From contig ML992512.1 in the NCBI GenBank assembly GCA_010093995.1, forward strand, positions 62,001 to 125,912: a stretch of 63,912 nucleotides of DNA, written 5' to 3'. The translations under genes and the position numbers were made by a program. How positions within the stretch are numbered: the first letter of the stretch is position 1; each line of letters begins with the position of its first letter. The notes beneath the pieces were generated by a model, which saw only the letters and a program-made list of their open reading frames with translations, did no database searches and was not told the DNA's origin. Positions 5,829 to 55,171 of this stretch are shown here, in pieces. Source of the DNA: Elsinoe ampelina (Eukaryota).

Positions 5829-6477
5829 GTTTGTGTAGATAGGGGTTGTAAATTGTTATGAATATTTGCTCAGTCATCATGATTCCGTGACAGTTTTCAT
5901 GTCGTGAAGAACCGTAACAACCTAAGCAGGCGCGACAAAAGATAGGTCGTAAGATTCGTCACGACTCGAATATTGTATCTGGCTGTGAGTTTGCATCAGT
6001 TATTCCGCTGTTGGGGCGATACAGTAGCGCGATGGACACGGGACCGCGGTCTTCCACCAGTCTCGAATACAATCTCATGTTCATCCGTCAAACATTCGAC
6101 ATTTCGCCTCATATCATGACAATTGATGATTCCAGCAGGGTCCTGCAAGACGCGCGAGTACGTTCGGGATCGAGGACAACATCCTTCGCGGACACCGCCA
6201 CGTCACCATTTTCCGCATGCAGACTCGTCACTCGAACAAGGCAAAAATGAGGCGCCTGCGCAAGCGGACCGACCTGCATAACGACCTTTTCACTGGTCGA
6301 GGCAATATCTGGGCAGCGCTTCCGTCTGAACATGCAGAACATGGGCATTTAGCCCCTCGTGCTGCTGGGCAGTGCATCACACGATAACGTCTGCCCGGTA
6401 TCCCAATCCGCCCGACGACTTGTTACTCTGACTTCGAGGCCACTCATCCTCCTTCGCCTGTCCGTATCGAGCCCAAG

Positions 6478-9400: not shown

Positions 9401-10782
9401 TCACTACCGCTCTTTTCCGTGCTGCCTCGAAGGGTCACATCAAGATAGTCAGACTGTTGCTCGATCGTGGGGCCGATGCCAGATGGACGTCTGGAGACGA
9501 GGACTTGCCTTTCCACATTGCCGTGGAAACTGGAAACTTGGACGTTGCTCGTCTACTTCTTGAGCGAGCGGGTGATGCAAGCCTCGCGCTGGACACTCCG
9601 CGAAGTCGTCGAAGTCTTTGTTCGGCTGCTGGAGAAGGCGACATGGCAGCAGCACAGCTCCTCCTCGATATACCCATCGACGTCAATGGCACGGACGATA
9701 TCGGGGCTTTGGCTCTTTGTAGCGCTTCGGACAGAGGAAATATGATGATGGTGCAACTTCTGCTCGACTCTGGTGCGCAACTTGATGGCATAAACAGAGA
9801 CAATGTCAATGCCCTCTTTGCCGCAGCGTTAAGTGATCATCTCGATGTGATACAACTACTTTTGGACAGAGGTGCAGATATCGATGCAAAGGCTGGCTGT
9901 GGGGTCAGTGTGCTCGGACTTGCAACGGCCGAATCAAACATGAAACTTGTGTCCTTGCTGCTCATGTACGGCGCCGATGTCAACCTGAAGCTGTCTGATG
10001 GCGTTGTTCCTCTGCAACTTGCTATACGCTGGGGGTCAATGGAAGTGGTACGTCTCTTGATACATCACGGAGCCGACGTCAATGCTCAAGGTGGTGAAGG
10101 TGGTAATTTGCTTCGATGCGCCATCTACCATTTTGAGGACAGTGATGACGACCTGGAGCTGATGCAACTCCTCGTAGACAGAGGCGCTGACATTCATGCA
10201 AAATCGTTCGATGGCGATTCAGCCTTTCACACCGCTATAAAATCAGGATTCACCAGGTTGGTGCGTCTCTTCCTTGATTCAGGGGCCTACCCTGATCCTC
10301 AGGACGAGAATTTCATGACATCTATCTACCATGCCTTGGCTGAGGGACACGTCGAGATAGCGCAGCTTCTATTCGACAGAGGGTTTCAGGTAGATGCGCG
10401 GAGCGTCGAGTACGGCATCGCTCTCAACACTGCAGTATCTCAAGGTCGAGTATCCATTGTCAAGCACCTTCTGGATGCCGGAGCTAAGGATGGTGTCAAT
10501 TGTCACATACCTAGCAGCACCTTGTGGTTCGCAGCTTGGCGAGGCGATGAAGTCATTGTGCAGCAACTGCTAGACAGAGGGGTCAATGTCAACGCAAAAT
10601 ACTACCCTTATGGAACCGCTCTTGATGGTGCAATTCTGGGAAATCGTCCTGAGATTGTGAATCTGTTGCTGGATGCTGGAGCCGAAGGTCAAGCTAGGGG
10701 CTCGAGCGCAGTAGCATCCTCTACAAAGCCATCAAGCAGGAGACGTCGGCATCGTGAAGCTCATGCTCGACAGAGGTACTGA
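6478..10782 (+). CDS. Fungal NLR-like STAND protein: PNP_UDP_1 (nucleoside phosphorylase) effector - NACHT - ankyrin repeats
   Basis: PNP motifs IGWICAL..E, DIRLGDVVVS, EMEAAGL and IRGICDYADSHKNK.W. Phase-0 intron 7471..7521 (GTTCGT..CTCAC..TAG) fuses the two ORFs in frame. P-loop ADPGCGKS, Walker B CVFDALDE, HQTAKDFL, and roughly 14-15 ankyrin repeats (..LL..GAD). Confidence 0.92.
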
Positions 10783-28055: not shown

Positions 28056-29935
28056 TCACTTCTTGTCCTCACCCTTCCGCTCTTCGTCCTCGGTCTTTGC
28101 CAAAGGACTCGACTCCACCTTCCTCTTCTCTGCACCAGCATCGAGCTCGTAGATGGGCGGCGTGCTGCCCTCAACTTCGCTGACGCCTATTCTGACTTTC
28201 CGGTCCACGCCGGCGAAGTACCCGTCTCCTTCTAGCTCCTCGACCCCCTTCTGCTCTGGACCTTCCATCTCGGGCAGGTACTTATATGCCTGAGCATGGT
28301 CGTGTTCCATCTCATGCACGCCGGTCTCGGTGCCGAGTTCGCCACTGTAGGAATGGTCATACTTGGGTCTTGCGGCGGCATTGGCAGCTTGCAGCTCGGA
28401 AGCAGCTTGTGTAAGCTCCTTCTCGCGTTTGAGCTCTTTCGTATTTCGCCTCTTCCTCCGGAGGCAGATGAAGATGGCTGCGGCTGCAATGGCGGCAACG
28501 GCGACGATGCCAGCCGCGATGCCGGCTTTTGCGCCTGTGGACATGCCACTCGAGGCTGATGCTGCTGCGGCTGCAGCGGCAAGTGCGGGCGAGAGGATGG
28601 CGCGTAGCGACTGCGTGGTGATACCGGTGTCCCATTTGCAAGGAGCGAGAGTAAAGTTGCCACGATCGTAATCCGCAATCAGATAGGCCTCTTGCAGGAA
28701 CGTACGGCCCAGTGTGTACTGTGTGACATTGTCACCGCGGCGGAGAGGGAAGTAGAACTGTGAGTCGCCAATTGCAGTCAATGGGTAGGAGACGTTCAGA
28801 TCGAAAGCCGAGTAAGGTAAAGTAATCGGAACAACTGCGCCTCCATTGACATTTGGAGACAAATTGAATGTGACCTGAGGGTTCTCTCTGACCAGGCGTG
28901 CGTGCAGAGTGGCACTGACGGGGTAACGGTTAAGTGTCGAGTTCCATGTAAGTCCAAAGGCACGCTCAAAGACCTCGCAGGCATCGAGCGGAAGATAGAT
29001 GTAAGGGATCGTGCTGTCGATAAAAGCCGGAAAGGAAGTGCCATACGTGGCCAGGTCTGTTTCGCCCGACTTCAGACCGATAGACTGTACGTTCACAAGC
29101 AGATCCCGGGAAACATCCTGGTAGAATGGGAAGCTGACATTGGAGGCTGTGAAACGAGATGCGTCGTAACCACCAAGGGTCAAAGAACCATAGACACCGT
29201 TCAGTCTGTAGCGATTGCCAGCAGTGTATGCGTATGACAAACTGGGAATCAAATTGCGGTCTTTCAGACGACTCATGAAGCTGGTCTGGGGGTTGTTGAT
29301 ATCGGTGAAGTTTGTGGCCTGGGGTTTCAACCCAAAGATTCCAAGCCAGTACGTTGTGCCAATGTACCAAGCAATGATCGCATTGTCGTCCGTAGGCCCT
29401 CCACTGCCTGACCAGCCCAGTGTCAGCTTGTCGAATCCAAAGCTACCGGATGCGGTATAGCCTAGGTTTTGGTTGAGCCCAAGCTGGAAGACATCCCTGC
29501 CTTTCCATGTCGAGGAGTCGTTCGAGGTAAAGAGAGCGCCTCGCTGGTCTGGGCACTGATCTGGATATGAAGCTGGACATCCTCGTGGCGCGACAACCCA
29601 ATTGTTGTATCCTGCCGTTGACGGCAATACTCGGACCACTTGTGGCGGCGTACCAACTTGAAGTGGGAAAGTCGACCTTGCATTGTCAGCGCATTCGAGC
29701 CTCCATGAGGCCGTGTCACCTACCATGCACCATCATTTCCCTCCCAGTACTGTGACGGCGCGAAGCTGATGGGTTCCGGGACATTCGTCGTGTTCGTCGC
29801 CCGGCGCAACAGCGATGGTAAAGTCGTCGACAGCTTTGCAGCCCTGAGTATCGATCCGGCGGATGCAGCGGAAACGTGAGCGAGAATCAGCAGGAAGAGC
29901 GTTGAAAGACCGCTGGGTCTGCTTTGATGCGCCAT
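28056..29935 (-). CDS. Type-I membrane pepsin-fold (A1 aspartic peptidase-like) protein, first catalytic Asp missing
   Basis: Signal peptide; intron 29723..29677 gives WEGNDGAWSTF. Motifs VGTPPQ, SLTLGGYD, FIDSTIPYIYLP and LGRTFLQEAYLIADY. TM segment AGIAAGIVAVAAIAAAAIFICL followed by RRKRR. Confidence 0.85.
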
Positions 29936-38931: not shown

Positions 38932-41758
38932 TGTGAGTGCTCTGCGGGACCTGGTCGATGGTGGCTTCTGCTGACCGGCCGTCAATTTTCTTGAGGAACA
39001 GCAGGTATAGCTTGGCGTCGTAGATCGCGGGCAAATTGTGCTGAGTCAGCCGACCTACCTCACATGGATGTCTGAACTTTCGTCCTAGTGCATTCTTTCC
39101 GATGCGCGCGCAATGACTCCAAATTTGCTCCGAGACGTTTATTTTGTCCGTGATGGATCTAATAGTTTTTGCGAATGGCGCCACTTTCACGAGCATGCAA
39201 GGCGCAGCACATAGCGAATGGGCGCATCTCTGGACGAAAGCGCAATGTGACAGCTGAGCTCAGTTTTGCCTTCGCTGCAAATCCGCCCACGCCTATTCAC
39301 CACTAATGCGGCACTGAGGATGGTTTGTCTTACCACAAAATGCGCAAGCCAAGCCATGCAGAGGCTCCACCGACTGTGCCACCACCTCAGCTGCATGTGA
39401 TCCGATCCCTCCCAAGGAGAGCCACTGACAGGTCTGGTAGGTGATTGGATCATCCGTGCAGCCGCTCCACACCACACTTGATTCCACATTTCGGGAACTG
39501 TTCTTTCTCTTTGTGTACATATCTGCTGGATGTGATAAATTTATCTCTGGCTGAAAACTCACAGCATCACCAAGAACTCAGGGTCGTCCTGCGTAGTCTT
39601 CATCTGTGTGGCCCAGAGACAAGACAATGAAAGGTACAAATAGAAGTATGCCTGCATCTACTGTTAGCAGCATAAGTACAACCACAATCAATACCATCAC
39701 AACCTAGCTCGATTCGCAGAATCCAAATCATGCAGGCCCCGCTGAAACGGTACTTCTTCGGAACAATCCTTTGGCTTTCGGCACTTCTGCTAGTAATTGG
39801 CGCGAGACACATCTACTCCAGGTGACTGGTTCAATCGGATGAACGCGCATGCTGGTAGCATGTTGTGGTATGTGAGCATCTGTAAGGCCATGTAACGAGC
39901 GCTAACGGCCACACAAGCTAGTTCACGTGGTCAGCCACCGGCGCTGGAAAGGGCAAATGGCATAGTCCTTTGACAAATCGGCAACGTGGCGTTCGGGTCT
40001 CATGAGACCGTATTAATGCTCGCAAGGCTTCCTGTCAGCTCGGATCTACAACATCTGTAGGTCCATGTCACGAAGTCTACAGCCGCTGCAACGGCTTCGA
40101 TTTGTGGGATGGCCAATTCCCAGCTTAACGAAATGTCAATCTCTCTGGCCAACTTTGCAACACTCTTTTTCATGCTCGTCTTTGGCACAGCTGACGACTC
40201 ATGATGGCATTGCCTGGGGTCGATCAAACGCCTGACTCTCCGGTTGTCCAAGTCTCCGCAGGAGCGTATCAATTGCCTGGAAATACCCAGGTCTGGAACT
40301 ATTCCTTAATTCACATAAGCCTCATTCGAGGCCTGGTGTTCGACCAGCGATTGAATGTCTCTGGTTAGGTCAGTCAAGCTGTTGAGAGCCAATCGGCAAC
40401 CCGAGGGCGACCCTACAAATCGACCACGAGTCCGGCTTCCCCATATGTTGCAGCCGTTGAACGCCTTTGGGCTTTTCCAAGTCCGACCATGAAGCTGATT
40501 CTTTGAGGAAAGCATTTGTCAATCAACAGAGGGGATCGTCACAGAGATCGTCGTGGTTCTCTCGGCATACGACACAATCAAACACCATCGGATCGACGCC
40601 GATAGCATCATCCATTGGTGGGGAAAGCTGTCAACCATATGGCCGACCTCTGAAAGTCCAGGTCTAGAGCGAACCCAAGCATTGTGGCTGCGGTGTTGCA
40701 TCGCTTGCTCCCGCTTTCTCTGGCTCCTACAGTCGAGCTTCGAATCCATGCCAAATCATGAGATTCTGCCGCAATGTGGCTGGCAGAAGTGGTTGATACA
40801 ACCGTTGCGCTGCCGTCCAAGTTACCGCTTTCGGACTAGCGTCAGACGCATACATGCCCGGTTTTGACTTCATTCCGTACACTGCTCGAGCACCACGGAT
40901 AATTTAGCAGACCTGCTGTCGCTCTGGGATCTTGAAGAGGCCTTCCATCGAGGAGTCCGAATGTAGCTTCATTACAGCCATGGAGGGTCGGTCCTCTCAT
41001 TGAATCAAAAGGCATCGGACTCCACACCCTTGCGCTAAGAGGATTGCTATGTTTCCCAACAATGCTTGCAACTTGTTCTTGTCTCAGGATCATCTGTGAA
41101 GATCTGTACTTGTTCTGGACCTTGCGACAGTTGCATGAAAACTGGCATTCCATTCTTGATCATGGAGGACCTCCACTCTCTGCCTGAGAAAGGCCGATCG
41201 ACCGTTGGGCGGCTCAACGTGCCTGTGCCAAATCGATATGGATAAGCATTAAAACATACCAACCAGCCAATGAAAATTTTACAACCAGATGCACCGTTGC
41301 GATCGCCCAAACGGTCAGTCGAGCCTTTGACAGGCACTGCTTAATGGGCTTTGGCGTTCGCAGTTCGATCTGCAGCAACGGCTTCCTGGAATATCTCATT
41401 CAGGCTCTGGACTTCACCTGTCTCAAACTGCAGTATTTGCAGCAATACCACCGGACTGAGTCAATAGCGTTTTCCAATAAACTCACAACGGTTGTCGAGA
41501 CGCATTCATGGTAAGAGATCATCAAGTATATAGAGGACGTGGTGGTCTTGTTGTCAGTCATTATCAGCATCAAACACAATCAGCCTCTTCAGGTCTGCTA
41601 TATACTCTCCTTCATAGCAGTGCAATATTCTCGGTTCCGACCATCAGTCAATCGCTACACGAGCACTAGTCATTCCTTCTCATCACACTCCACCTCGACT
41701 ACCCTCGAGTCTCTAATCCTCCTTCACCCTCATCCACACACACCCGATCCAAACCACC

Positions 41759-43618
41759 ATGCATAATCAAAAGGTTTTGGCCGCGGCCTTCATTGGTCTC
41801 GCGGCAGCATCACCTGCTCCACAGAACCTCGATCTTGCGGCTATCATCAACGCCCCTGCCGCAACCATCTCAGGTCCTTCTCTCGCCGCCATCAGCCAGA
41901 CCTCGGTCATCAACACCCAGGCGCTGATCGCCTCCATTTCCAACGCCGTCACTACCACTGCTGCTGCCAAGATCACCGGCGCCGCGGCAGCCAATGCTGC
42001 CAACATTGTCCCAAGTGGTCTGTCCAAGCGGGACACTGAGAGCAGCGGCCGTGTTGAGAAGCGTGGTCTCAGCCTTCTCGCCCAGCTCCTTGCTGCTTAT
42101 GGCCTTAACGTCAAGACCACCACGTCGTCCGTCGCTGCTGTGGCCACTTCTACTGCGTCAGTGACCAATGTCCTGTCATGCGCGGCTATCAATGCCATCA
42201 ACTATGCCACCTCCAACAACAAGTACACTGTTCGTTGTGGCTACGACGTCGCCACCTACGGCGATATCGGCAATGCTCTCGGTACTGGCTTCACCGACTG
42301 CCTGAGCAAATGTGATGCCTTCAGCGGCTGCTGCGCTGTTACCTGGTCCCAGCAATCCAAGATCTGCTACTTCAAGAACTTGAGGGGACTCAGCACTGCG
42401 CCAATGGCTCTCGCCGGCGCTGACATTGCTTTCATCCCAGCTCAGTACCCAGCCGGCCTTACTGGCATGACCACTCCTGCCAACACCGCTGCTACTGCGT
42501 CCGCCACCACTGCTACCACTGCTGCCACTACTGCATCTGTCGCAGTGGTCCAAAAGGTCGCTACCACTGCCAGCTCTGCTGCTTCCTCTGTTGTCAGCAG
42601 TGCGGCCGTCACCCCCTCTTCTGTTGCCTCTTCTGCCTCCGGCGCGGTCGCTGCTGGCGCCGGCTCCGCTACCAGCTCAGCTGCCGGCGCTTGTGCTACC
42701 ACTCCCGAGGACGGAACCTACTGCGGCTTCATCAATCCTGAGGATCCTTGTGCTCCCCAGCCTGACGGATACGGCCAGAACATCACCAACCCTGACACTG
42801 TCGATAACTGGATGGCCTATGCCCCGTTCCAGCAGCTCGCATTCCAGGCTGCTACCCCATCCGGCTACGTCAAGACCTTCAACAATCTGAACGCCTCTGC
42901 CTCTGCCTCTTCCTATATGGGTCTTTGGACTCTCAAGTCCTACAGCCCCTCGGACTGCGCTGCTATCTGCAACAACAACACCGGCTGCACTTCCTTCAAC
43001 ATCTTCATCGAGCGTGACCCCTCTCTCAACCCATGCAAGAACGACAGCACTGCTTACACTCCTTGGGGATACTGGTGCCCTCTTCCCTCATCCATCACCA
43101 ACTACAAGTGCACACTGTGGGGCTCCAACCTTGACGCCAGCGTTGTCACCAACGCCGGTGGATGGCGCGGCGACTTCAACGTTGTGATCACTGGCTCCAA
43201 TGGATACGACAAGACCAACGTCACCACTCCCGTCGCCATTGCCACCTACGACCCTCCCCAGAACTGCTCCGACAGCGGAATCAACGGCGGCTCTTACTGG
43301 CTCGGCAGCAAGTTCTTCGCTGGCGCATTCAACCCCCAGCTTTGCGCAGCGTACGCCAATGCCACTAGCGCAACCAATGAGGCTGCTGCTATCGCGGCTG
43401 GCCAGTCCAACTTTACTCCTTGCCAGATGTTCAACGCCTACCACATCTACAAGAACAATATCCCAATGGGTACCTACTGCTCGCTGTATAACGCTCAGCT
43501 GTCCACCAAGTGGGCGTCAGTCAAGGGTTCGTGGTCCGGCAACAACTACTACGGTGTTCGCAACTCGTGGCAGTACCAGTTGACGACCCCTCGCACTGGC
43601 AAGTGCGGTAGCTACTAG
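41759..43618 (+). CDS. Secreted Cys-rich protein with PAN/apple-like carbohydrate-binding modules and Ala/Thr/Ser linkers
   Basis: Signal peptide, two KR sites, PAN-like DCLSKCDAFSGCCAVTW...CYFK, and second module CAAIC...C.SFNIFIERDPS...KCTLWG. Intronless with strong C-ending codon bias. Confidence 0.75.
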   Translation: MHNQKVLAAAFIGLAAASPAPQNLDLAAIINAPAATISGPSLAAISQTSVINTQALIASISNAVTTTAAAKITGAAAANAANIVPSGLSKRDTESSGRVEKRGLSLLAQLLAAYGLNVKTTTSSVAAVATSTASVTNVLSCAAINAINYATSNNKYTVRCGYDVATYGDIGNALGTGFTDCLSKCDAFSGCCAVTWSQQSKICYFKNLRGLSTAPMALAGADIAFIPAQYPAGLTGMTTPANTAATASATTATTAATTASVAVVQKVATTASSAASSVVSSAAVTPSSVASSASGAVAAGAGSATSSAAGACATTPEDGTYCGFINPEDPCAPQPDGYGQNITNPDTVDNWMAYAPFQQLAFQAATPSGYVKTFNNLNASASASSYMGLWTLKSYSPSDCAAICNNNTGCTSFNIFIERDPSLNPCKNDSTAYTPWGYWCPLPSSITNYKCTLWGSNLDASVVTNAGGWRGDFNVVITGSNGYDKTNVTTPVAIATYDPPQNCSDSGINGGSYWLGSKFFAGAFNPQLCAAYANATSATNEAAAIAAGQSNFTPCQMFNAYHIYKNNIPMGTYCSLYNAQLSTKWASVKGSWSGNNYYGVRNSWQYQLTTPRTGKCGSY

Positions 43619-43891: not shown

Positions 43892-45328
43892 TCATCGACG
43901 AAACACCAACCCCTGGACATGCTCATTAACAAAAACAGGCACAAAGTCCTCCACCATATACCACCTCGGCTTCTCCATATCCCCATGTACAATCCTCTCC
44001 CCCAACTTCAACCCTTCAAACACAACATCCCTCACGCCCCTCCCCCCATCATACCCCAGGATCTGCGACGCATTCACGACCCCCGACTTGTCCACCCCCA
44101 GACTCAGATTCCTGACGCGCACACGCCGCACCCCCCTGCCCGGCGCCGTGGTCCACATGGCGTTCTGCATGACGCGGATATTCACCAGCTGCCCGCGAGT
44201 GATCCTCCGCACGCGGACGTCTTCCAACGAGATATCCTCCAGCAAGTTCCCATCGCCTGCGTTGAGGGCGATGCACCCTTGGTACCACAGCTGGTGCTCC
44301 TCGTGGTCGAGGACGTCGACGTCGGAAATGTGGATGTTGCGTATGCTTGTGGGACGGGCGGGGGCGCCGTGGGTGCCGATGAGGATGGGGTGGGCGATGT
44401 CCGGGAGGAGAACGCAGGAGCGGATCGTGTAGTCGGTGGAGTCGCCGTGGTAGTCCCATCGGGAGCAGTTGATGGCGATGGAGTCGTCCGAGGTGCGGAG
44501 GAAGCAGTTCTGGATTGTGACGGAGGAGGTCGAGAGGAAGTGGAGTCCGTCGCCGTTGCCGCAGGAGGTGAAGACGCGGTAGTGGGAGATGGTGATGTTG
44601 GAGGATTGGCCTGCGAGGAAGCTGAAGCCGGTGGTGGAGAGAGCGGTGACGTCCCGAATGCTGATGTTGGTTGAGTCTTCGATCAGGATGGCTCCTTGCT
44701 TTTCTCTGATGAAGTCTGGTGAACTTGTCTTGTAGATGAAACCTGGACCGTAGACCCCTGAGTTGCTGACGTCTTTGAAGTGCAGACCCACGTCGAGGAA
44801 TGCTCCAGGGGCGAGGTAGACTGTCTTGTTGGATGGGACGAGTAATTTGCCGTTTACGACTTTGTCGTATGCAGTTCCATTGTTGATACCTGGTCCGAAG
44901 TACCAGAGGTTTTCCGTATCACTTGTCGGCGCGTCGACATCGATCCGGTTGATGAGCAAGTGCACGGCGTTCCATTTGTCATCGTTCAGAATAAGCATAA
45001 TATCCTTGGCTTCCTTGACGACGAAGTGAATTGAACTGGACTCTTTCACTTCCGTGTCAATGTTGTAGATTGAGGGGAGGATATCTGCTTGCGAAATGGT
45101 AATCTGCTTAGAGTGGACGGCAAACTCCACGGGACCGTCGATCTGCAGACTTGCTACGGAGATCGGATGATGCTGAAGTGCATTCTGGGCGAGATTCATA
45201 GTACCAGCTCCGGCGAGTATAGGAGCAACATCGTGCCAAACACTTTCCACGTTCCCGGCTTCTCGAACGTGAATGGTATAGTCGGGATGGGTCTCGACGC
45301 CACTCGGTGCAGGTATTGCGCTAATCAT
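43892..45328 (-). CDS. Intracellular pectin-lyase-fold (parallel beta-helix) glycoside hydrolase, GH28-like
   Basis: YFGPG, KTVYLAPGA, NGDG, TSDDSIA, AHPI and repeated NI.I.D/N beta-helix rungs. No signal peptide and no introns. Confidence 0.75.
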   Translation of the reverse strand: MISAIPAPSGVETHPDYTIHVREAGNVESVWHDVAPILAGAGTMNLAQNALQHHPISVASLQIDGPVEFAVHSKQITISQADILPSIYNIDTEVKESSSIHFVVKEAKDIMLILNDDKWNAVHLLINRIDVDAPTSDTENLWYFGPGINNGTAYDKVVNGKLLVPSNKTVYLAPGAFLDVGLHFKDVSNSGVYGPGFIYKTSSPDFIREKQGAILIEDSTNISIRDVTALSTTGFSFLAGQSSNITISHYRVFTSCGNGDGLHFLSTSSVTIQNCFLRTSDDSIAINCSRWDYHGDSTDYTIRSCVLLPDIAHPILIGTHGAPARPTSIRNIHISDVDVLDHEEHQLWYQGCIALNAGDGNLLEDISLEDVRVRRITRGQLVNIRVMQNAMWTTAPGRGVRRVRVRNLSLGVDKSGVVNASQILGYDGGRGVRDVVFEGLKLGERIVHGDMEKPRWYMVEDFVPVFVNEHVQGLVFRR

Positions 45329-45692
45329 GTTTCGAGATAATGAATCTTCTCGTGGCGTCTGTATCCCTCGCGGTGGAGAACACGTGAATATATGTATACA
45401 TGCCACCGTCTGAATGTGCCGTCGGGCGGGCTCCGACGGTTGCTCCGCGTCCCGAAGGCGAATATCTGGTTGAATATTTGACAGCTACGAAGATATCCAG
45501 ACCAAGAACGTCACGGAAAGCGTTCTCAGTACTGCTTTTTTGATCTTCCGAGGGGCGACGTTGTATTCACACCAGACGAGCTACCACGGTTCCAAGCAGT
45601 CTCCGAGAAGCGGACTCTCTAGCGATGCTGACTGCACACTCCAGTCCCTGCTTGTCGCCCGGCCCAAGTGAAGCATGCCCCCTGCCCATTAC

Positions 45693-47426
45693 TCAATAGA
45701 CATACCTGAAGTTAGGGTTCTCCAGATCTGTAAGATCTTGAAATGCCAGATCGTGAGACACCGCCTCATTGTTGTCAGACGTAGCGTTGACAGCCGCTCG
45801 CTTGACAGAGTTCCTGCGCATGAGGATGACCCGCGTGAGCACTACCATCAGTACGTACACTCCGTAGACACACATGTGCGCTACGAAACCGCGAAGGTAA
45901 CGTGGGGCGTCCTTCGCTTGGAAGATCTGTGGAGCGGCCATGTTACCTGCGGCCCAACCAACAAAGGTCATCGTGAGACAAGTGCTCTTCTTGGTCTGTC
46001 CACCGACGTTGCGCGAGATCAGTGAGATGATCATGTTTCCTTGGGCGGGGAAGAATTGAGTGCAGTAAAAGGCGATGAGAAGGCCACCGGCGTTGGACTT
46101 GTTCGGGGTAACGGTGAGGATAACGATGGTACCGATGACCGGTGGTATGGTCCATAACTATCGCCGTTAGATTCAATGCCGCGGAGTGGAGCGATAGCCA
46201 GGAAGCTTACCAGCATAGTGAAGCATGTCTGACCCCATCTCTGCGACACCCATGCAGCACCGACCATGACAACGACTGTAAGCGCGCCTTGGGCGATGTT
46301 GAGTAGTTGGGTCTGGAGATAGGTGAAGCCGAATTGGGAAATGATGAGGTTCGAGAAGACACCAAGACCCCCAATGACAAGATTCGCCACGATGATGAGA
46401 GTGACGATGCACCAGACGAATGGATCCGTGAGCGCCTCGACCACCTGGTACTTCTTATATACCCTGTTTTGGATGCCAGTCTCGTTATGGCGGACTCGTT
46501 CAACGAGCAGTTTTTTCTCCTCTTCGTTGAAGCACTTCGCTGCCATTGGGCTATCAGGCAGGAACAAGCCAATGACTACGGCCCAAGCGACTGTGGCGAG
46601 GCCGAGAATCATGAACAGCAGCTGCCAGGGAAACATGATGCCATTCGTGTAGTGAGAGACGCCGTAGGCAAGCAGACCTCCGACCATGAGTTGCACCTGG
46701 ATGTGTTCAGCTTCAGTCCTGTATGAAGAGCTCTACACCACTTACCCCACTCATACAGTACCATAGAGCTGTCAGTACAGATTGTTCTTCTCTTGTGTAC
46801 CACATCGCTGTGAGGACGACAAAAGTAGGCTGTACACATGATTCGAAGAGACCCAGCAAGAATCGGACCACCATGAGCGACGCAAAGTTCTTCGAAGCCG
46901 CGGAGCAAGCCACCACAGCGCCCCAGCAACCGACACTGCGATTATTAGTGATATGATGCGGCGGTAATGTAAATCGCCATACTTGACTGCAAGGAACTTG
47001 GCGATTGGAAGTTTCTGGAGGAGGAAGTTCTGTGGGTATTCGCCCACAAGGATACCCATGTACAGGATTGTGCCTAGCCAGCTGTACTGCAAGATGGTTT
47101 TAGTACAATTTCCCCAGTTCGCAGGTCTCGATACTCACGTCTTGCCCTGTGAGGTTGGCATCCTTCCTGATGTTCATGACCGAGGCAAAGTTCAGAGTCC
47201 CTTTGTCGAGGGACTGGCAGAAGTATGTCGCCAACATGATGATCAGGACCCGCCTGTTGACTTTCCAGTACAATTTTCGATTGGTAGCTTCATCGATCTG
47301 AATGTGCTCGCCAGCGTACTTTGCGACTTCTGCGTCTTCGGCGACTTTGTTTGTCGTGTAATGCTTTTCGCCGCCGGAGTCCTCATCGTGAGTGATCGAC
47401 AGCCGCGGGGTAAGCTCCTTGGTCAT
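45693..47426 (-). CDS. MFS transporter, anion:cation symporter (Dal5/allantoate permease-like) family
   Basis: Introns 47138..47087, 46982..46936, 46745..46697 and 46210..46158. QSLDKGTL, YSWLGTILY, RFLLGLFES, WYTREEQ, LPDSP, NVGGQTKK and DLTDLENPNFRYVY. Confidence 0.92.
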
Positions 47427-47747
47427 TGTGAGAAATCTTGTCCGAAGTACAGAAAACCAATGGAGTAAAGTAGTCGATACGGGGTGTATGGAAACTGGCT
47501 TGTCTACATTGTGAATCCGGGGTCGCTTCTATACCACTTGAGGGGCCGGTCTGCTTTCGGCGTCGGTCCGATACTTCATCCGATGGAAGATAACCACAGC
47601 ACGCCAATCGGCCACTCCCCGAGGAAGATACCGTTGCAATGCTTGAAGGTTCGATGGAGACATATGCTCCTCGATCACTTGTCAGACGGTCATTGATCGA
47701 AACATAGACCCAACCTCCTCTCAGTTTTCACTTTCCCACACGACATC

Positions 47748-49114
47748 ATGATGCAAACACCACCAAGATCGCCCAAACCAGGCGAGAAGATTGAATTGCA
47801 GCGCTTATACGACGCGTCAGTCTCAGCGAAGCTCTGGAATGTGGCTGCAAAGTCGCTGGGAGAAGTGCATCCAAAAGACCAGAACATCCGTTGAACCAGA
47901 CACTGACCATTGCAAACAGACCGATCCGCCCCAGATGATGCCAGAGTACACTTTGCCCGGCGAGAAGACTTACACGTACTCGCATGCAAGCTTCTGGACC
48001 TCGGGCTTCTTCGGCGGATCCCTTTCCCTTCTGCACGAGCGACAGCGACGTTGGCCGGATCGCGTACCTCAACACATCCCTGACAATGCCCTTCGACGCG
48101 CCTGCCAGTGGTGGACCCACGCATTGCACGCGGAAGCCTCCCGGACCGACTCGCATGATCTCGGCTTCATGATCCAGCCGTGGGCGCAGCTGGGCTGGAA
48201 GTTGGACCGCGATGAGAGATGCCTGGCGAGTCTCGTGGTGGCTGCAAACGCGTTGGCATCGAGGTTCAATCCAACCGTGGGCTGCATCCGAAGCTGGGAC
48301 ACCTGCTTCACGAGACGCTACGCCTTTGCAGATCCGCGAGATGACTTTCTAGTTATCATCGACAATATGATGAGTAAGGGCTCTGTTCCCGCAAGTCCGT
48401 TCCCGTGCGTGATGGCTGACTGCAAGACTAGACCTTGATCTGCTTTACCTCGTAGCAGATCTGCGAAAGGACCAGCGGTTGGCAGATATTGCCAGCAAGC
48501 ATGCCATGACAACACTTCGTTCTCACATCCGGGCCGACGGCAGTACTTGTCATGTGGTCAACTTCAACCAGCATGATGGCTCGGTCAAAGAGAAGATCAC
48601 TAACCAAGGCTTTTCGGACGATAGCTGCTGGTCACGCGGACAAGCTTGGGGCATTACCGGGTTTGTGCAATGCTATCGATGGACAAAGAACCAAGCTTTT
48701 CTCGAGGCTTCGAGGGCTCTGGCGGACTACTTCCTCGAGCGTGCGGCTAATGACAAGCTTCCGCCGTGGGATTTCGATGCGCCTGAAGGTGGTCCTCCGG
48801 ATAGTTCTGCAGCCATGATCACGGCGTACGGTCTATTGCTTCTTCACGAGGCCATCCCGAATGATACAAAGTACTTGTCGGCCGCACTTCAAATGACGCA
48901 GAATGTCGTTCGTCTCGCAATGACCCCCTCCTCAACGTACCCGAGTGACCCTCGGCAACCAAGGTGCGACGATGACGAGACTATTCTGGTCCATGCAACC
49001 ATCAACAATTACGAGTATGCACCGCGGAGATGGGCGGATCATGGGCTTGTATACGCAGATTACTTTTTCATGTTGGTCGGCAACAAGCTGTTGGAAATGG
49101 GATTGGTTGGATAG
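47748..49114 (+). CDS. Unsaturated glucuronyl hydrolase (GH88), cytosolic
   Basis: Introns 47865..47919 and 48374..48431. WTSGFF, HDLGF, IRSW, IIDNMMNLDLL, WSRGQAW, WDF, DSSA and YADYFF. No signal peptide. Confidence 0.92.
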
Positions 49115-49221
49115 AACTTTAGATCGAGAAGTCGTATGAATTCCAGTCGTCCGCTCCGTAAGAGCTGACTCTATGTGCCTGAACGTTGTCAATGCTTTAC
49201 TCCACAGTACTAAGCCGACTT

Positions 49222-51599
49222 TCAAGTTACCTGCTGGACCAGATCAGGGAGACCATTTTGGAGCGAACCGACCCAGTCAACTCCAGTGTCTTGCATTCCG
49301 TGCGTATCGATCCGTTGCAACCCTGAAGCTTGCGAAACATCGTCCATTGCGTTCATACCCGACATTGAGAATTCGGTCTCGTCCCATAAGTAAGGCAGTG
49401 GAGGAAACGCCATGCTGATGCCATCGGGCGAGGGGTTCTCCATGTTGACATTCAGAGGCTGACTGGAGCTCAGCGTATCCAGCTGAGGCCAGACCTGGGG
49501 CGGGTGTTCTTGCTCTCCAGTCCGACCAGGTCCAAGGCTGCCTGCGCGACTGCGTATGAGCTTCTCAGAGTATACTGGACGGCCCACATCTACTTCATCC
49601 GTCGCTACAGCTCCGCCGTCTCGGGTGGAATCGAGAGACTGCTTGGCATCTAGTAATCGTTTGCTGAGCCGAGAAGCCAGCGTCTCTGTCAAGACCGAGT
49701 TGCGATCTCGAACACTCCAGCGTGAACTTATTTCGGCTAAAGCATCAGAGATGGTCCAGAAGGCCGTTCGGGGTGGCCCCGATGTCGATGCAGCATTGGC
49801 GAGTAGCATACGACCTGCCACGAAGAGACAGAACGATAACTGTGGATTCGTAATGCCGCTGCTTTGATGCAAGAATTTCTGAGCAATTGTGCCGATCTCG
49901 CTGGCCGCAGTAACGCATGTCTCGGCAGAGCTCGAGGAAAGAGAAGCAATCGCAGAGGCTCGTAGCGCCGGTGGAGGAAATGCTGCGCATTGGTGCAGCT
50001 GAATGACAGCTGTGTTATGTGTGATATGCGCCAATGTTAAATTGGGGTCCATGATGCCGTCAGCGTTCAGGACGGATGCATTGCGCCACTTTTCTGGCAG
50101 GAACATTCTCCATCTAGACAGATGTCAGTCGAAAGACTCATTAGCTTAGACATGGCCGGTATGAAGACTGACCTAAGCAGTCTGAGATCCAGCTCCTTGA
50201 AGCGAAGGAGCCACAGATGGGTTTCCTGCTGGTTTTGAAATTTGATAGGATGCTGTAATAGGAAATTGGTTACCAGGTTCAGTGTCTCTGTTGCCTCGAT
50301 GCAGAAAGCGAAGCCACCAAGTGCGTCGACTTCCTGTTCATCAGCTGTCAAGCGCTCGCTATTCGGACTTGACGTCTGATCGGCTAGCTCCATCTTTGTC
50401 GCAACTCCGAAGAATGGTGTTCTGACGGCGTTCCCTGCTTCCCAGATAGCACCTTCGCAGGGTAGCCTTCGCTGTACGTCTGAGCCAGAGATACTGTTGT
50501 TCCAGCCTGTCGCAACAGTGCAGAATCTGTCCATCACGAAAACAACCCAGAATAACCTACGACGCTGTTCTTCTTCGGTCCAAGATTCGGCATGTTGTAG
50601 AAAAGTCATACGCCTCATGAGATAGTCGTGCATATTGGCATTTTCGCTTTGCTGAGAGGGTTCTGCGTTCAAGCGTAATTGCTCCACCGTGCGAGCCATT
50701 GTGCTTACGACGCTCCAGGCCGATGGACCTCTACCGCTTCCGATGATGTCGAACGCTATGATGACCATTGCTTGCAAGTTCTCGACGGAGAAGCGATTCA
50801 TACTCCGCAGCATGACGGCGTGTCGGTACCGTAGACTGAGCCTTTCACTATCTTTGACCGATATCGTGTCCGGACGAGCAAACCGCAAAGATAGACTTGT
50901 GATTGCCAGAAGAACCGTACTGAGCCTCTCTCGTCCGTCTGGCTGCTCAAGATCCTTGCGGAAATGACGCACGTGCAGGATAGGTATCCATCGGTGTATG
51001 TTAGCGAAGTACCACTCGACCAGAGTGTCAACTTGGTCATTGGCAGGGAGTCTGGGGTTGAGATCATCGAGCTCATCCGCGTGGAGATCGGAGTGTAGTT
51101 GAGTATTGGTGTCCGTATAATGATCATCGGTCCTGGACGGCTGTTCCCCTTCACGCACGGTGTCTAGCGTGTTTGGATTTGCCCTTGAAGCTTGCAAGTA
51201 GCTCTCTTTCAGCAACTCAGCTTCTCGAGGCAGACAGGAGACACCATTATTTGGCCCCCTGGCGGTATCGTTGGTAAGATCCAGACCCAACACTGATTTC
51301 AACAGTAGTCCCTGTCCAAGAAACATCTGCTCTAGATTCGCAAGACGATTTGTGAGTGTTTCAATGGCCCCCATCTTGATTCCAGGTCGACGGCGATCAT
51401 CGTAGAGACAATCGATACCAAGTTTTTCGCATTGCGAGCATGGCGTATCCTTGGAGCATTTCGACTTCCGTTTCCTGCAATTCTGACAAGCTGTCATTTC
51501 CTCTTCGCCTTCGTTCCCATGCTGATCACCGTCACCGACTGTGGAAGTTAATTTGACACGTTTGCGCGGATGCGCTTCAGCGCCACTCGTTCGTCCCAT
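49222..51599 (-). CDS. Zn(II)2Cys6 transcription factor with fungal-specific middle homology region
   Basis: CQNCRKRKSKC..PCSQC...C; YF..IH.WIPILH and RRRLFWVVFVMDR. Intron 50172..50114. The 3' end may have a further small exon. Confidence 0.92.
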
Positions 51600-51754
51600 G
51601 CTGTCACCAGAGAACGATGAGATGTATGGGTTGATGTGGACACTGGATATATCGGCGTCAACTCATGCTGCTGTGGTGATCGTGGTCGGCGTGTGAAGCC
51701 AACAGAGCAAGAACGAGGGGAGAATGTCAAAATTTGGGGACCGGTTTGGGTCGC

Positions 51755-51871
51755 CTGGGGTTTGGCCACCCCCGCTGTCCGGGGCTTTGTGGGGGCGAGA
51801 TTAACGAGATTGGCCCACAAATGTTGGCATGCGGGGGTTGGTTGGTCGAAGTCTCCACGGAAGTACTTCCG
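51755..51871. promoter_or_regulatory. Cluster of six CreA/Mig1 consensus sites (SYGGRG) plus palindrome CGGAAGTACTTCCG in the TF promoter
   Basis: CTGGGG 51755, CCCCGC 51770, CCGGGG 51779, GTGGGG 51789, GCGGGG 51831, CTCCAC 51853; CGG-N8-CCG at 51858-51871. Confidence 0.55.
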
Positions 51872-52165
51872 GCGCAGTCTGACCTGATAACCAAGTCTCA
51901 TTCAGAGCAGTGTCTGATACAAACCATCTGCGACAAACGGCAACGAGGACTGGTATGGAGCTTCGAGTTGATCACAGTCGGGATTGCTACACGAGATGGT
52001 GCACAATTGCTACACACGACTGGATGACCTAAAGTCATTCGATCATGAAGACTGGTATATCCAGGTCTTGAAGGCATTGACATTGCACTTCAGAGCTGAC
52101 CGCGGGTGATAGTGCAATAGCGGAGCGGTACTCTATCTAGCCTGGCTATCTTTTGAGGTCCACAC

Positions 52166-53484
52166 TCATGGCTGGGAGCTGTTCAACGCGCGATAAGGCC
52201 ACAATAGATCTCCCCAGGACGGTAGATCGCCATTTGTGAAGCGTCTCTCCAAAGGGGCTTTCCTGAACGCCTCTTCCAGGCACGGACTGTTCAACCCCAT
52301 CTTCTGCACGTACGGATAATATAGCATGTTCCACACCGGACGTGAGAGTCCCCGGCGGATATCAGAGATGACCGACCATGGCCCGTTGACGAGTACTGCT
52401 TCACATCGGAAGTAGGATGGGTCGTATTTGACGGTGTAGTTGAGGTTGTAGCACGCCGCATACTCGGCCCCCTTCAGTAGGATGTTGTCCTCGTAAGAGT
52501 AGAGGTCGCCTCCTTGGGACTGCACTGTGCGAGCAGCGGTAGATGCCCATGCAAGAGCACTTTGAGCGTGAGCTAAGAGTATGTCAGGACGTAACACAAT
52601 ACTCGGATGGTGCAGGTAGTGGTACACTGATCCCGACCTGCTTCAGCTCCTTGCCCTGTCTCTGCATCTACATTTCCATGAATACCTGCACACAAGTCGT
52701 TCTGATATAGATTGAGGGCATAGTTATACATCGTGATATCATCCAGATAGACTGCGAAGCTGAGTAACGCCGAGATACTTGCCATGCCGTAGTTCGCCTG
52801 TCCATTTATGATCGATTGACGAGCAAAGAGCCAGTAAAGCTGGATAGAGAAACCACTGCCTCCCTGCCACTGAGCGCCGGCTTCAGTCCAATTGCCTTCC
52901 CAGCGCATAATCTCTGCCGCATTGACAAACAGTTGACCATCTAGACCAACGAGTAGGCTCCGATCGGTGCCGATGATGTTCGTAAGATTGGTACCCCATG
53001 CGTCCAAGATCGATGTAGCCCGCAGCCAATGATTTTGCTTCTTTGTAATGTACCACATCAAAGCATTCTGCCATGCCGCTCGAGAGTCGTTCGCAAAGGT
53101 GGTGAAGTTGCTGACCAGTCCACGTGAGATTACTGACTCGGGTCCTTGCATACTGTAGTTTGACTGGGAGTACGAGTCTGCGCTGAAAGCTACGTACGCC
53201 GAAGCCCACGGCTCGCAGCCATTGACGACACCCTCCCGAATTCTTTCCAGATCCTCGTGGGTGTGCCAGATACCGGGATGAATGAATTCGCTTGTCCTGC
53301 GCTTGCCGAAAGCGATATCCTGGAGTCGAACAGTCGGGATTGGTCCATTCAAGCCTGGCACATCACCAATGAGCGCGGCAGCTGCAGTAATGACGAGAGT
53401 CCAGCTCAACAAGGTCTGTGACAATAGCTCAATACGTTATCCAATCGCTCCTGTGTTGTTCGCTTCATTACCTACCTGAGCCAT
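52166..53484 (-). CDS. Secreted alginate-lyase/chondroitinase (alpha/alpha)-toroid protein (PF05426-like), copy A
   Basis: Introns 53475..53416 and 52625..52573. Signal peptide; FIHPGIWH, ILDAW, NAAEIMR, EAGRDQSH, DLYSY and EYAACYN. Confidence 0.85.
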
Positions 53485-53934
53485 TGGCGCTGGTGATGGA
53501 GGACAAGAGCTAGCCGATAGTGACGCGACGTTCGAGTCCGCATCATGACTTACTGGTTAGAACAACAGTGTCGAGGCCGCGAATCCAATGGCATGGTTTT
53601 GTACAAGCGGTGCATTCATCGGACCGGCCCCCGGTGAGTGTGGCGGGCCAAGGAGAGACGCAACTCCCTTTCATCTCGCTTCGACGTCAGGGTCTGTGCG
53701 TCCCTTGGTCCTCGACAGCACGCCCGAAGTCTCGGACGAAACGTTCAGATGAGCTTTTGTGGAAAAGTCGATCGCTTTCGGAGCACGTCCGACGACTGAA
53801 TAGCAACGTTCTGACTGTTCTAGAGGCTCCACAGAGTCAGGGACAAACCTAGCCTCGAAAACCATGTAGGTCATAAGAACTGCCTCAAGTCCAGCCAACC
53901 TCCTTTCCCCAGACCAGCAAGTTCAATCGCATCC

Positions 53935-55171
53935 ATGTTGCTCAAATATCTCTATTTCGCGTGCGGTGTGGCTGGCTTCATCCATCCTGGAGCACTGCAC
54001 ACTGCTCAAGACCTGAAGCGCGTCAGGACTCACGTCCACGCTGGCAAAGAGCCTTGGGCTACAGCGTTCAAGTTGCTCACACAAAGCAAACATGCTCAGC
54101 CTGATTGGGTACCCTCCCCAGTCAGGACGCTTGTCCGCGGTTCGAGGGCTAATTACACCGACAATTTTGAACAGGCGTTCAGAGATACCGCAGCGGCATA
54201 CCAACTATCCCTTCGATGGCATATCACACGCAATGACACGTACGCGGACGCCGCTGTCGGAATCTTGAACGCTTGGAGCTCGACTCTCAAGGAAATCCAA
54301 GGGACTAGCGATCTGTACCTGGCTGCCGGCTTGTATGGGTACCAGTTCGCCAATGCCGGCGAACTCATGCGCTCTTACAACGGGTGGAGTGCTGATGAGC
54401 AGGCTGCTCTGGGCACCATGCTGACTGACATCTTCGCCAACCGGAGTCGATCTTTTCTTGACGACCACAATAACAACCCGGATATCTACCACTACTACGC
54501 GAATTGGGACCAGTGCAACATTGCTAACCTGATGGCCGTTGGAATCTTCACCGACAATCAGACCATGTACGATCATGCCGTAGACTATCTCTTGACCGGG
54601 CCGTCAAATGGCGCATTCCCGGTCTTCGGGGTCGCTAATTACACCGAGGAGGGCTCCTGCAAAACGCTGACCCAAGGTCAAGAAGCGGGTAGAGATCAAG
54701 CTCACTCGCTGCTGGATATGACGCTTCTCGGCGTGATCGCTCAACAGGGCTACAACCAGGGTGACGACCTATTCGCGTCTTACGGCAACATGGTGCTAAA
54801 CGGGTGAGGATCGACTTTCTCCACCACTTGGCACACTTCTGCAGGAATGCTGACATTGAGATCGCAGGGCTGAGTACGCCGCAAAGTACAATGTCAACCA
54901 GACAGTGCCATACACTCTGTACGAGAGCTATGAAGGCAATCAGACAGTCATCTCCCCAAAGTATAGGGGAGACATACGAGCTGGATTCGAATTGCTTGCT
55001 GCGCATTACGGTGTCGTGAAGGGCCTCAACGCGTCCTGGAGCGAGTCATACCGGGACTATGTCAATCGTAACACCAAGCTGGGCGTGGAGGGCGGTGGTG
55101 GCGATTACTCCAACAAATCTGGAGGATACGACGCCTTGGGCCATGGGACACTCATGTACCGACTGCGTTGA
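53935..55171 (+). CDS. Secreted alginate-lyase/chondroitinase (alpha/alpha)-toroid protein (PF05426-like), copy B
   Basis: Intron 54804..54867. Signal peptide; FIHPGALH, ILNAW, ANAGELMR, ANWD, QEAGRDQAH, EYAAKYN and GGYDALGHGTL. Confidence 0.88.

Follow-up and report, generated by a model that had tools for sequence, protein, structure and literature searches.

We analysed a 63,912-nucleotide stretch of the Elsinoe ampelina genome (positions 62,001 to 125,912 of the forward strand of contig ML992512.1, GenBank assembly GCA_010093995.1; hereafter the window, in whose own numbering all coordinates are given) and describe here six contiguous genes at 43892-55171. They encode a glycoside hydrolase family 28 (GH28)-like protein, a major facilitator superfamily (MFS) transporter, a GH88 protein, a Zn2Cys6 factor and two lyase-fold proteins, which we call LyA and LyB. 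Stop-to-stop open reading frames combined with Pfam searches confirmed all six genes at the coordinates given by the original prediction, which had been made from the DNA letters without database searches, and the two divergent intergenic regions that it had sized at ~320 and ~450 bp measure 321 and 450 bp. The genes and these two regions, from left to right, are:

43892-45328, minus strand: GH28-like gene, 478 amino acids (aa), single exon; product identical to database protein P0241
45693-47426, minus strand: MFS gene, 510 aa, 5 exons (45693-46157, 46211-46696, 46746-46935, 46983-47086, 47139-47426)
47427-47747, no strand: MFS/GH88 divergent promoter region, 321 bp
47748-49114, plus strand: GH88 gene, 417 aa, 3 exons (47748-47864, 47920-48373, 48432-49114)
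49119-51599, minus strand: Zn2Cys6 factor gene, 789 aa, 3 exons (49119-49178, 49231-50113, 50173-51599)
52166-53484, minus strand: LyA gene, 401 aa, 3 exons (52166-52572, 52626-53415, 53476-53484)
53485-53934, no strand: LyA/LyB divergent promoter region, 450 bp
53935-55171, plus strand: LyB gene, 390 aa, 2 exons (53935-54803, 54868-55171)

Contigs from four public runs that we presume to be RNA (X3 from one study; X4, X5 and X7 from a second) span all six genes, the intron-less GH28-like gene included. The 11 introns of the block (four in the MFS gene, two each in the GH88, factor and LyA genes, and one in LyB) have GT..AG ends on the coding strand and are spliced out in run contigs at ≥99% identity, those of GH88 in X4, X5 and X7 and those of the MFS and LyB genes in four runs; because joints of this kind come from spliced RNA only, the five intron-bearing genes are transcribed. 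Contig depth is unfit for ranking expression, and the uncovered part of the factor gene in X7 is uninformative. The GH88 and Zn2Cys6 genes are convergent, with stop codons 4 bp apart (49114-49119), so their 3′ ends must overlap; one X3 contig runs without interruption across the stretch that joins the GH28-like and factor genes, with the minus-strand genes spliced and GH88 unspliced. Three positions of the window read differently in the run contigs of one study (44227 A>G, 45190 C>T and 54159 C>G), probably through strain differences, and the other study's run matches the window. Introns of the window's genes are of the short spliceosomal kind, and the nearest named relatives of the cluster proteins are from Dothideomycetes: LyB is 67% identical to a Hortaea werneckii homologue and 64% to one from Aureobasidium, and the GH88 and GH28-like proteins have Zasmidium homologues at 58-59%.

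The GH88 assignment, made at first from the letters, proved genuine. An exon piece scored 16.3 bits in Pfam, under the 26.6 cut-off; both halves of the protein match solved unsaturated glucuronyl hydrolases (C-terminal half: 3wiw, E 1.1e-27, and 1vd5, E 1.1e-23; N-terminal half: 3wiw, E 5e-6, and 1vd5, E 4.3e-5). The motif DSHDLGF aligns with DTHDLGF and DHHDLGF of the solved enzymes, and the Asp of HDLGF is the residue that we take to be catalytic. Enzymes of this family act on unsaturated glucuronate ends and require a lyase product. When metagenomes were scanned with the GH88 piece, the 63 loci returned were all at ≤44% identity, with no fungal-level GH88 match among them. Pieces of the MFS protein match MFS_1 (PF07690; E 1.6e-13 and 1.3e-8 on two pieces), and the top match of all three exon pieces is TIGR00893 (E 1.1e-19, 1.3e-12 and 2.6e-7), below the 395-bit whole-protein cut-off because exon pieces, not the whole protein, were scanned. 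TIGR00893 covers the 2.A.1.14 anion:cation symporter subfamily and takes its NCBIfam name from a D-galactonate transporter; the match would fit organic-acid import and does not itself reveal the cargo, and the MFS piece found no relative among solved structures. The Zn2Cys6 factor carries both Zn_clus (PF00172; 42.8 bits, E 5.5e-11) and Fungal_trans (PF04082; 84.4 bits, E 8.8e-24), each above its cut-off, and from the position of its gene we assume that it controls the cluster.

The GH28-like protein scored 40.3 bits against PF00295 (cut-off 22.9), and its homologues are named ‘glycoside hydrolase family 28 protein’ by their sources. Residues D260, D281, D282 and H313 are invariant in 41 GH28-like sequences, and D260, D281-D282 and H313 align with the NTD(G), GDD and GHG motifs, respectively, of the plant polygalacturonases 8ikx and 7b7a. 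Searched against solved structures, the 41-homologue profile reached GH28 enzymes of plants and bacteria (8ikx, E 1.4e-8; 1bhe, E 9.3e-7) and the GH49 dextranase 6nzs (E 5.9e-7). The structural model (predicted local distance difference test, pLDDT, 95) has an N-terminal beta-sandwich followed by a beta-helix, and its best fold matches are GH49 isopullulanases and dextranases (E 6.6e-17 to 1.6e-12, TMq 0.57-0.66), headed by isopullulanase 3wwg (E 6.6e-17, TMq 0.65); the GH49 matches take in the N-terminal beta-sandwich, and the GH28 exo-polygalacturonase 2uve follows them in the ranking at E 2.1e-7. Invariant GH-N motifs on a beta-helix fold make the protein a clan GH-N inverting hydrolase, and probably an active one; family membership does not reveal its specificity.

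LyA and LyB are divergent paralogues (34% identity). LyB scored 41.5 bits against PF05426 (Alginate_lyase), and the LyA exon piece 17.3 bits, under the 22.2 cut-off. The search for LyB-type homologues gave 707 at E≤1e-5 among the candidates scored, and all named proteins among LyB's best 120 matches are fungal; LyA-type proteins have 1957 representatives at E≤0.001, with few close relatives (47 at E≤1e-30). ESM Atlas relatives carry only generic ‘chondroitin AC/alginate lyase’ names, and NCBIfam gave no match for LyA, LyB or the lyase-like proteins of Streptomyces described below. A model of the Hortaea homologue P0004, the protein 67% identical to LyB, is an (alpha/alpha) toroid (pLDDT 79.8; predicted template-modelling score, pTM, 0.85). 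VIA-align matched it to chondroitinase 9o3q (Z 26.7), polysaccharide lyase family 5 (PL5) A1-III (Z 26.0), PL17 Alg17c (Z 25.5), BoPL38 (Z 23.4) and PL15 (Z 22.4), with a root-mean-square deviation of 3.3-3.8 over 304-319 residues for the first four and 9-17% identity across the matches listed; the close fold matches are all lyases or a uronate epimerase. In sequence searches against solved structures, LyB alone gave no match at E≤1, and a 30-sequence profile of fungal LyB and LyA types together with bacterial relatives reached 3nfv (E 1.1e-4), A1-III (E 0.085) and BoPL38 (E 0.27-0.31).

The lyase-fold proteins had been predicted to bear signal peptides and the GH88 and GH28-like proteins to lack them, a division that holds for the cluster proteins and across their homologues. 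LyA opens with the signal-peptide-like sequence MAQTLLSWTLVITAAAALIG, with a KRR site four residues ahead of a conserved FIHPG, and LyB with the short signal peptide MLLKYLYFACGVAG, which FIHPG follows directly; the GH88 and GH28-like proteins begin with polar sequence, and no upstream exon for either gene was seen in the RNA contigs. Maximum 10-residue Kyte-Doolittle scores at the N-terminus are 2.73 for LyA, 1.83 for LyB, 1.16 for the GH28-like protein and 0.85 for GH88. Among homologues we counted proteins with a 10-residue stretch of Kyte-Doolittle score ≥2.0 in the first 35 residues, a crude measure and not a signal-peptide predictor: such a stretch was present in 50 of 63 full-length LyB homologues (60/63 at a threshold of 1.6), 1/108 GH28-like homologues and 1/12 GH88 homologues.

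We think it on balance probable that the six genes form a utilisation cluster for a uronate-containing glycan. LyA and LyB would be secreted and would break down an acidic polymer outside the cell, with beta-elimination as the most likely reaction; the anion:cation-symporter-type MFS protein would bring in acidic oligosaccharides, from whose non-reducing ends a cytosolic GH88 would take the 4,5-unsaturated uronate; the GH28-like inverting hydrolase would cut a remaining glycosidic bond, and the Zn2Cys6 factor would turn the gene set on. Of this scheme we infer the lyase chemistry, the order of the steps, the import of oligosaccharides as opposed to monomers, and the regulation. That LyA and LyB are lyases is plausible because GH88 needs a lyase product and the cluster contains no other lyase candidate. 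The original prediction had arrived at much the same interpretation, of which the coherent unit and the proposed split between compartments stand; what is conserved, however, is a set of sub-modules.

Several results weigh against this pathway, and the first of them concern the lyases. A profile of 34 fungal LyB homologues reached nothing better than E 0.81 among solved structures. In BoPL38, according to the excerpted text of a preprint (bioRxiv 10.1101/2024.12.11.627697), Y298 and H243 are the bases, N242 and R292 hold the +1 sugar, and the enzyme is also epimerase-active. When the 30-sequence family was set against PL38 and PL5 by profile alignments, not structural ones, H258 (30/30) fell on the catalytic Tyr of 3nfv and one position ahead of A1-III Y246; N191-W192 lined up with the Asn-His of the NNH motif, so that W192 (25/30; Tyr in four, Lys in one) stood opposite the catalytic His (H243 of BoPL38, H192 of A1-III), and there was no Tyr in the family's RDQGHxT segment. 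The +1-uronate residues are kept (N191, 28/30, and R254, 30/30, aligned with N242 and R292 of BoPL38), so the family retains the uronate-holding residues and not the PL38/PL5 catalytic pair. The columns H19, D86, R254, D255 and H258 are invariant (30/30), followed by R70, E145 and E251 (29/30), D128 and Q256 (28/30, like N191) and Y91 (27/30), and an N-terminal FxHPG motif carries an invariant His. D86 and D255, both invariant and acidic, are not what one usually meets in an enzyme whose ligand is a polyanion. Thus the LyB homologue resembles BoPL38 (8bdq and the 9fh entries) and A1-III (1qaz) in its toroid fold (Z 23.4 and 26.0, 318-319 residues) and in the +1 Asn/Arg, but shares 13-15% identity with them, has H258 where they have Y298/Y246 and W192 where they have H243/H192, and belongs to a family marked by FxHPG. 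From the alignments H258 is the likely base, and the family may work by some other mechanism or have an activity other than that of a lyase. The secreted beta-elimination of the original prediction is accordingly something that we can only infer, the catalytic Tyr and His of PL38 and PL5 not being conserved at the aligned positions.

LyA and LyB might instead be hydrolases, epimerases or wall-remodelling proteins, with GH88 linked to them for some other reason and no beta-elimination pathway at all. The replaced Tyr/His, the two Asp in the invariant set, relatives named ‘GPI anchored protein-like’ and ‘cell wall anchor protein’, the epimerase activity given for BoPL38 itself in the excerpts mentioned above and a GH88 that is unlinked in Actinobacteria (see below) would all suit such proteins. 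We nevertheless hold this to be unlikely, given the linkage of GH88 to LyB or the GH28-like gene in several fungi and one Firmicute contig, the retained uronate-binding Asn/Arg and a set of close fold matches made up of lyases and a uronate epimerase; moreover, His serves as the base in other lyase families on the same fold.

A more specific form of the proposed pathway would be a beta-1,4-glucuronan cluster built on CAZy PL38-type lyases like TpPL38A, the exo-glucuronan lyase of Trichoderma parareesei, with fungal-wall glucuronan, rhizobial exopolysaccharide or algae as its targets. The best sequence link of the family to a solved structure is to Bacteroides ovatus 3nfv/3nnb (E 1.1e-4), which we assume to be filed under PL38, and GH88 works, as the family does, on unsaturated glucuronate ends. 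In the excerpts available of two papers, the members of PL38 are lyases of glucuronan, alginate and hyaluronan, with TpPL38A as the one fungal enzyme (PMC11890756, PMC13027841), and the excerpted text of a Sporothrix paper gives one dbCAN ‘PL38 glucuronan lyase’ and a GH88 (PMC11822852), Sporothrix protein P0397 being sister to the LyA clade in our tree. However, the PL38 catalytic Tyr/His is not conserved in the LyA/LyB family; the fold matches PL5 and PL17 no less well than PL38 (Z 26, 25 and 23); the GH28/GH49-type hydrolase has no known beta-glucuronan activity; and the GH43 and GH127 enzymes found near the bacterial counterparts are ill-suited to a homopolymer. We regard this form as rather unlikely.

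Linkage in other fungi was followed by two proxies, namely neighbouring locus tags or accession numbers, and identical sizes of the longest contigs among the best 120 matches per search. LyB and GH28-like genes adjoin in Seiridium cupressi (SCUP515_06326/06327), Neonectria punicea (QQX98_007193/007195) and Botrytis cinerea B05.10 (BCIN_02g00070/BCIN_02g00060) plus five more strains; GH88 and GH28-like genes adjoin in Didymosphaeria variabile (N0V89_007890/007889); and LyA-type and LyB-type genes adjoin in four Fusarium assemblies (FOXG_02676/02675, FOTG_18066/18065, Focb16_v012951/012950 and IL306_006998/006999) and lie two tags apart in F. xylarioides. In three Hortaea assemblies GH88 and LyB are five accession numbers apart. 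By the second proxy, the searches shared 15 longest-contig sizes for LyB/GH28-like, 9 for GH88/GH28-like, 5 for LyB/GH88 and 2 for all three (37,133 and 46,910 bp), several of these shared contigs being just 4.8-12 kb; same-size coincidences inside single lists numbered 1, 2 and 0.

Other genomes lack the linkage. The Fusarium oxysporum GH28-like gene FOXG_17000 is unlinked to FOXG_02675/02676; LyB-type and GH28-like tags are distant in F. nematophilum, F. lateritium, F. decemcellulare and Penicillium nucicola; and GH88 and GH28-like genes are distant or on separate contigs in Colletotrichum tofieldiae, C. nymphaeae and Zasmidium. Enzyme-gene pairs thus recur in other Pezizomycotina, as a synteny check proposed with the original prediction would have it, but members are unlinked in Fusarium, Colletotrichum and Zasmidium; the conservation seen in fungi is of recurring pairs or sub-modules and not of the whole six-gene block, nor, as far as these proxies reach, of the MFS or factor gene. 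Nor did the cluster's four promoter regions share a motif beyond chance: two 7-mers were common to at least three of the four, against a shuffle mean of 3.7, and 260 of 300 shuffles reached the observed count. CGG-type repeats occur in these promoters and are not common to them. Taken by themselves, the lack of any conservation seen for the block as a whole, the unlinked members in some genomes and the missing promoter motif could mean that the six genes are mere neighbours with no common pathway; with locus tags that show family pairs to be linked in five or more fungal genera, with 15, 9 and 5 shared contig sizes, and with linkage also in 62 of 79 bacterial loci, we consider this very improbable.

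To find the bacterial loci, we took the GH28-like profile through prokaryotes, with each species represented by one genome; this yielded 181 relatives, with 79 loci kept. These are mostly from Streptomyces and Kribbella (34-39% identity over residues 6-476), with a few from Clostridia and Lachnospiraceae and one from Bifidobacterium. The hidden Markov model (HMM) of the fungal LyB family matched within 10 kb in the 62 loci just mentioned, mostly immediately downstream of the GH28-like gene and usually as a pair, a protein of ~1000-1100 aa (E ~1e-65) and one of ~430 aa (E ~1e-119). The order in Streptomyces locus L067 is ATP-binding cassette (ABC) permeases, GH28-like protein, a 1035-aa PF05426+fn3+DUF1349 protein, a 444-aa PF05426 protein and a carboxylesterase, with two ABC systems, LacI regulators and a GH43 in the neighbourhood. 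LyB shares 42% identity over 382 aa with the small Streptomyces protein (E 7e-97), more than with LyA (34%); for LyA the figure is 35% against the large protein's catalytic domain and 28% against the small protein. The trio is clearly shared between kingdoms: GH28-like, LyA-type and LyB-type genes make up an old module common to fungi and Actinobacteria, and linkage both in fungi and in 62/79 bacterial loci argues that the module is functional and cross-kingdom. The original prediction had missed that the GH28-like gene and the two paralogues also form a bacterial operon.

The bacterial arrangement also departs from the fungal pathway proposed above. All three Streptomyces proteins start with twin-arginine translocation (Tat)-type twin-arginine signals, and the N-terminus of the fungal GH28-like protein corresponds to the start of the mature bacterial protein; given the Tat signal on the Streptomyces GH28-like protein, a cytosolic role would be specific to fungi. 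The fungal GH88 HMM matched within 10 kb in none of the 79 bacterial loci. When five of the genomes were searched with PF07470, the two Streptomyces genomes had strong matches outside the locus (the only strong one in the genome of L067 being ~740 kb away), the Bifidobacterium and Lachnospiraceae genomes had strong matches, and the Kribbella antiqua genome had nothing above the cut-off. On a Firmicute-like metagenome contig, L049, an ABC importer is followed by successive genes for GH88, GH43 and the GH28-like protein. GH88 is thus truly tied to the module in fungi and on contig L049, but not everywhere.

The other bacterial neighbours, GH43, GH127 and esterases among them, hint at a decorated heteroglycan of plants or microbes, in particular at a plant glycan decorated with pentoses, for which the fungal cluster has no enzymes. 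In 28 of the 79 loci there is an XynB-like GH43 within 10 kb, and in three Firmicute loci it is directly beside the GH28-like gene; further neighbours include GH127, GH36, a second, rhamnogalacturonase-like GH28, the carbohydrate-binding module CBM96 and esterases; the hosts of the genes include plant-associated fungi, gut Clostridia and Bifidobacterium. The substrate could on these grounds be a plant heteroglycan that has uronate in its backbone and pentoses in its side chains, for instance a pectic domain or a gum of the glucuronomannan type, and the fungal cluster would then deal with the backbone part only. We judge this improbable: the fungal cluster has no pentosidase or esterase, no characterised enzyme is known to tie the LyA/LyB fold to such a substrate, and 51/79 bacterial loci lack GH43.

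Three arrangements among the bacterial loci are recorded here for themselves. In Streptomyces himalayensis (L098:9320-15177) the small lyase-like gene is flanked by two GH28-like copies. In Bifidobacterium (L141:5771-9250) a large PF05426 protein with CBM96 is followed by the GH28-like protein, a rhamnogalacturonase-like GH28 and GH36. Two large Firmicute proteins of 1181 and 1012 aa (L049:5861-9403 and L139:5196-8231), 27% identical over 833 aa (E 2e-83), are encoded next to GH43 and the GH28-like gene, and in L049 also GH88; neither has a Pfam match, and searches of NCBIfam (with the L049 protein only) and of solved structures (with the L139 protein only) were also empty, and this large protein may belong to the same pathway as an enzyme not yet described.

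A quick maximum-likelihood tree of 62 rows assigns LyA and LyB to separate major clades. LyA sits among multi-domain, partly bacterial relatives (Paenibacillus and Streptomyces among those named), with Sporothrix P0397 as its sister (SH-aLRT 97), and the tree leaves open how the LyB clade is joined to the clade of small bacterial proteins. Because LyB is nearer the small and LyA nearer the large bacterial protein, and the two lie in separate clades, the paralogues would have split before the fungal and bacterial versions did. In a tree of GH28-like proteins, which included only one Firmicute row, all 21 fungal rows group together (SH-aLRT 100) and separately from three actinobacterial clades; neither the backbone of this tree nor the LyB link in the other is resolved well enough to name a donor. 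In the fungal version of the module the secretion signal of the hydrolase would have been lost, and a transporter, GH88 and a fungal regulator gained. We put forward tentatively, as a possibility about which we are doubtful, a bolder account of these data, in which LyA and LyB represent an uncharacterised alginate-lyase-fold family (catalytic set H19, D86, R254-D255 and H258, unlike PL5 or PL38) that moved with the GH49-shaped hydrolase as a unit between Actinobacteria and Pezizomycotina; fungi would have rewired it to an import-first (‘selfish’) pathway by dropping the secretion signal of the hydrolase and recruiting the MFS transporter, cytosolic GH88 and Zn2Cys6 factor, and the substrate would be a glycan without a known degradation pathway.

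As to the substrate of the proposed cluster, our guess, held with low confidence, is a glucuronate-rich polymer, be it beta-1,4-glucuronan, another microbial exopolysaccharide or a plant gum. By family knowledge, GH88 argues for a beta-eliminated end of glucuronate or iduronate type, and in order of likelihood we would guess at a glucuronate-rich polymer and then at a plant glycan decorated with pentoses.

The logic of the proposed pathway is that of the Bacteroidetes polysaccharide utilisation loci, which likewise combine a secreted or surface depolymerase, oligosaccharide import, internal trimming and an in-locus regulator. The description of the cluster as resembling such a bacterial locus is borne out to that extent, but there is no SusC/SusD pair in the window and the fungus has no periplasm, which makes the resemblance functional only. 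Closer in gene content are the Gram-positive operons exemplified by Streptomyces L067, which have the GH28-like, LyA-type and LyB-type genes side by side together with transporter and regulator; they differ in using an ABC importer and LacI in place of the fungal MFS and Zn2Cys6 proteins, in the Tat signals on all three enzymes, in the unlinked GH88, and in the presence of GH43 and a carboxylesterase. In the gellan and xanthan pathways of Bacillus sp. GL1, lyase products are imported and an intracellular GH88 strips them of unsaturated glucuronate. The enzyme 1vd5 belongs to this system and is matched by the window's GH88 (E 1.1e-23), although the lyases there belong to other families (PL8, gellan lyase) and the setting is bacterial. 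Among fungi, a glucuronan lyase system of PL7, PL8, PL20 and PL38 enzymes in Trichoderma parareesei was reportedly described by Pilgaard et al. in 2022. In the passages that cite it, this fungus, too, secretes lyases, among them a PL38 of alginate-lyase-type fold, and turns a polyuronide into absorbable dimers and monomers; in contrast to the six genes here, the system appears in those passages as a set of secreted lyases, and not as a cluster with transporter, GH88, GH28-like protein and regulator (PMC10512326, PMC11890756, PMC13027841).

Clusters of carbohydrate-active enzyme (CAZyme) genes have already been catalogued in fungi, for example in Trichoderma, as excerpts of one paper have it (PMC10512326), and the contrast originally drawn with fungal CAZymes that are ‘usually scattered’ was therefore overstated. 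The literature searches, in which supplementary tables were outside the scope, gave no description of this gene set, in agreement with the view that it is not a characterised cluster; in the same scope no paper was found for Bcin02g00070, Pc16g14800, FOXG_02675-02677 or FFUJ_06678-06680, which such tables may list. What is new here is a proposed fungal, MFS-based, import-first glycan cluster in which a GH49-shaped, GH28-like hydrolase accompanies enzymes from an uncharacterised branch of the alginate-lyase fold, and which has a clear actinobacterial counterpart. To our knowledge, import-and-trim clusters of this kind are well understood in bacteria and poorly in fungi, and the six genes offer a compact, testable fungal case with secreted depolymerases, oligosaccharide import, cytosolic trimming and a local regulator. 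LyA and LyB also stand for a widespread family in which the usual catalytic residues of the fold are replaced, and the occurrence of the trio in operons of Streptomyces and Kribbella opens a second, independent way to its function, besides making the module a candidate for the cross-kingdom transfer of a multi-gene catabolic unit.

The genes that flank the six-gene block appear to be unrelated to it, with a PAN-domain secreted protein upstream and DHBP synthase downstream (~55.8-56.5 kb). The upstream gene (41717-43618, plus strand) encodes a secreted Ala/Ser/Thr-rich protein with two weak PAN/apple-domain matches and is convergent with the GH28-like gene. Elsewhere in the window lie a subtilase with PA and Fn3-like domains (3014-5825, plus strand), an aspartyl protease (28059-29732, minus strand) and a fungal NOD-like receptor (NLR)-type gene (6388-10779, plus strand), in which a PNP_UDP phosphorylase-like part (6388-7518) is followed by NPHP3_N/NACHT and many ankyrin repeats (7522-10779).

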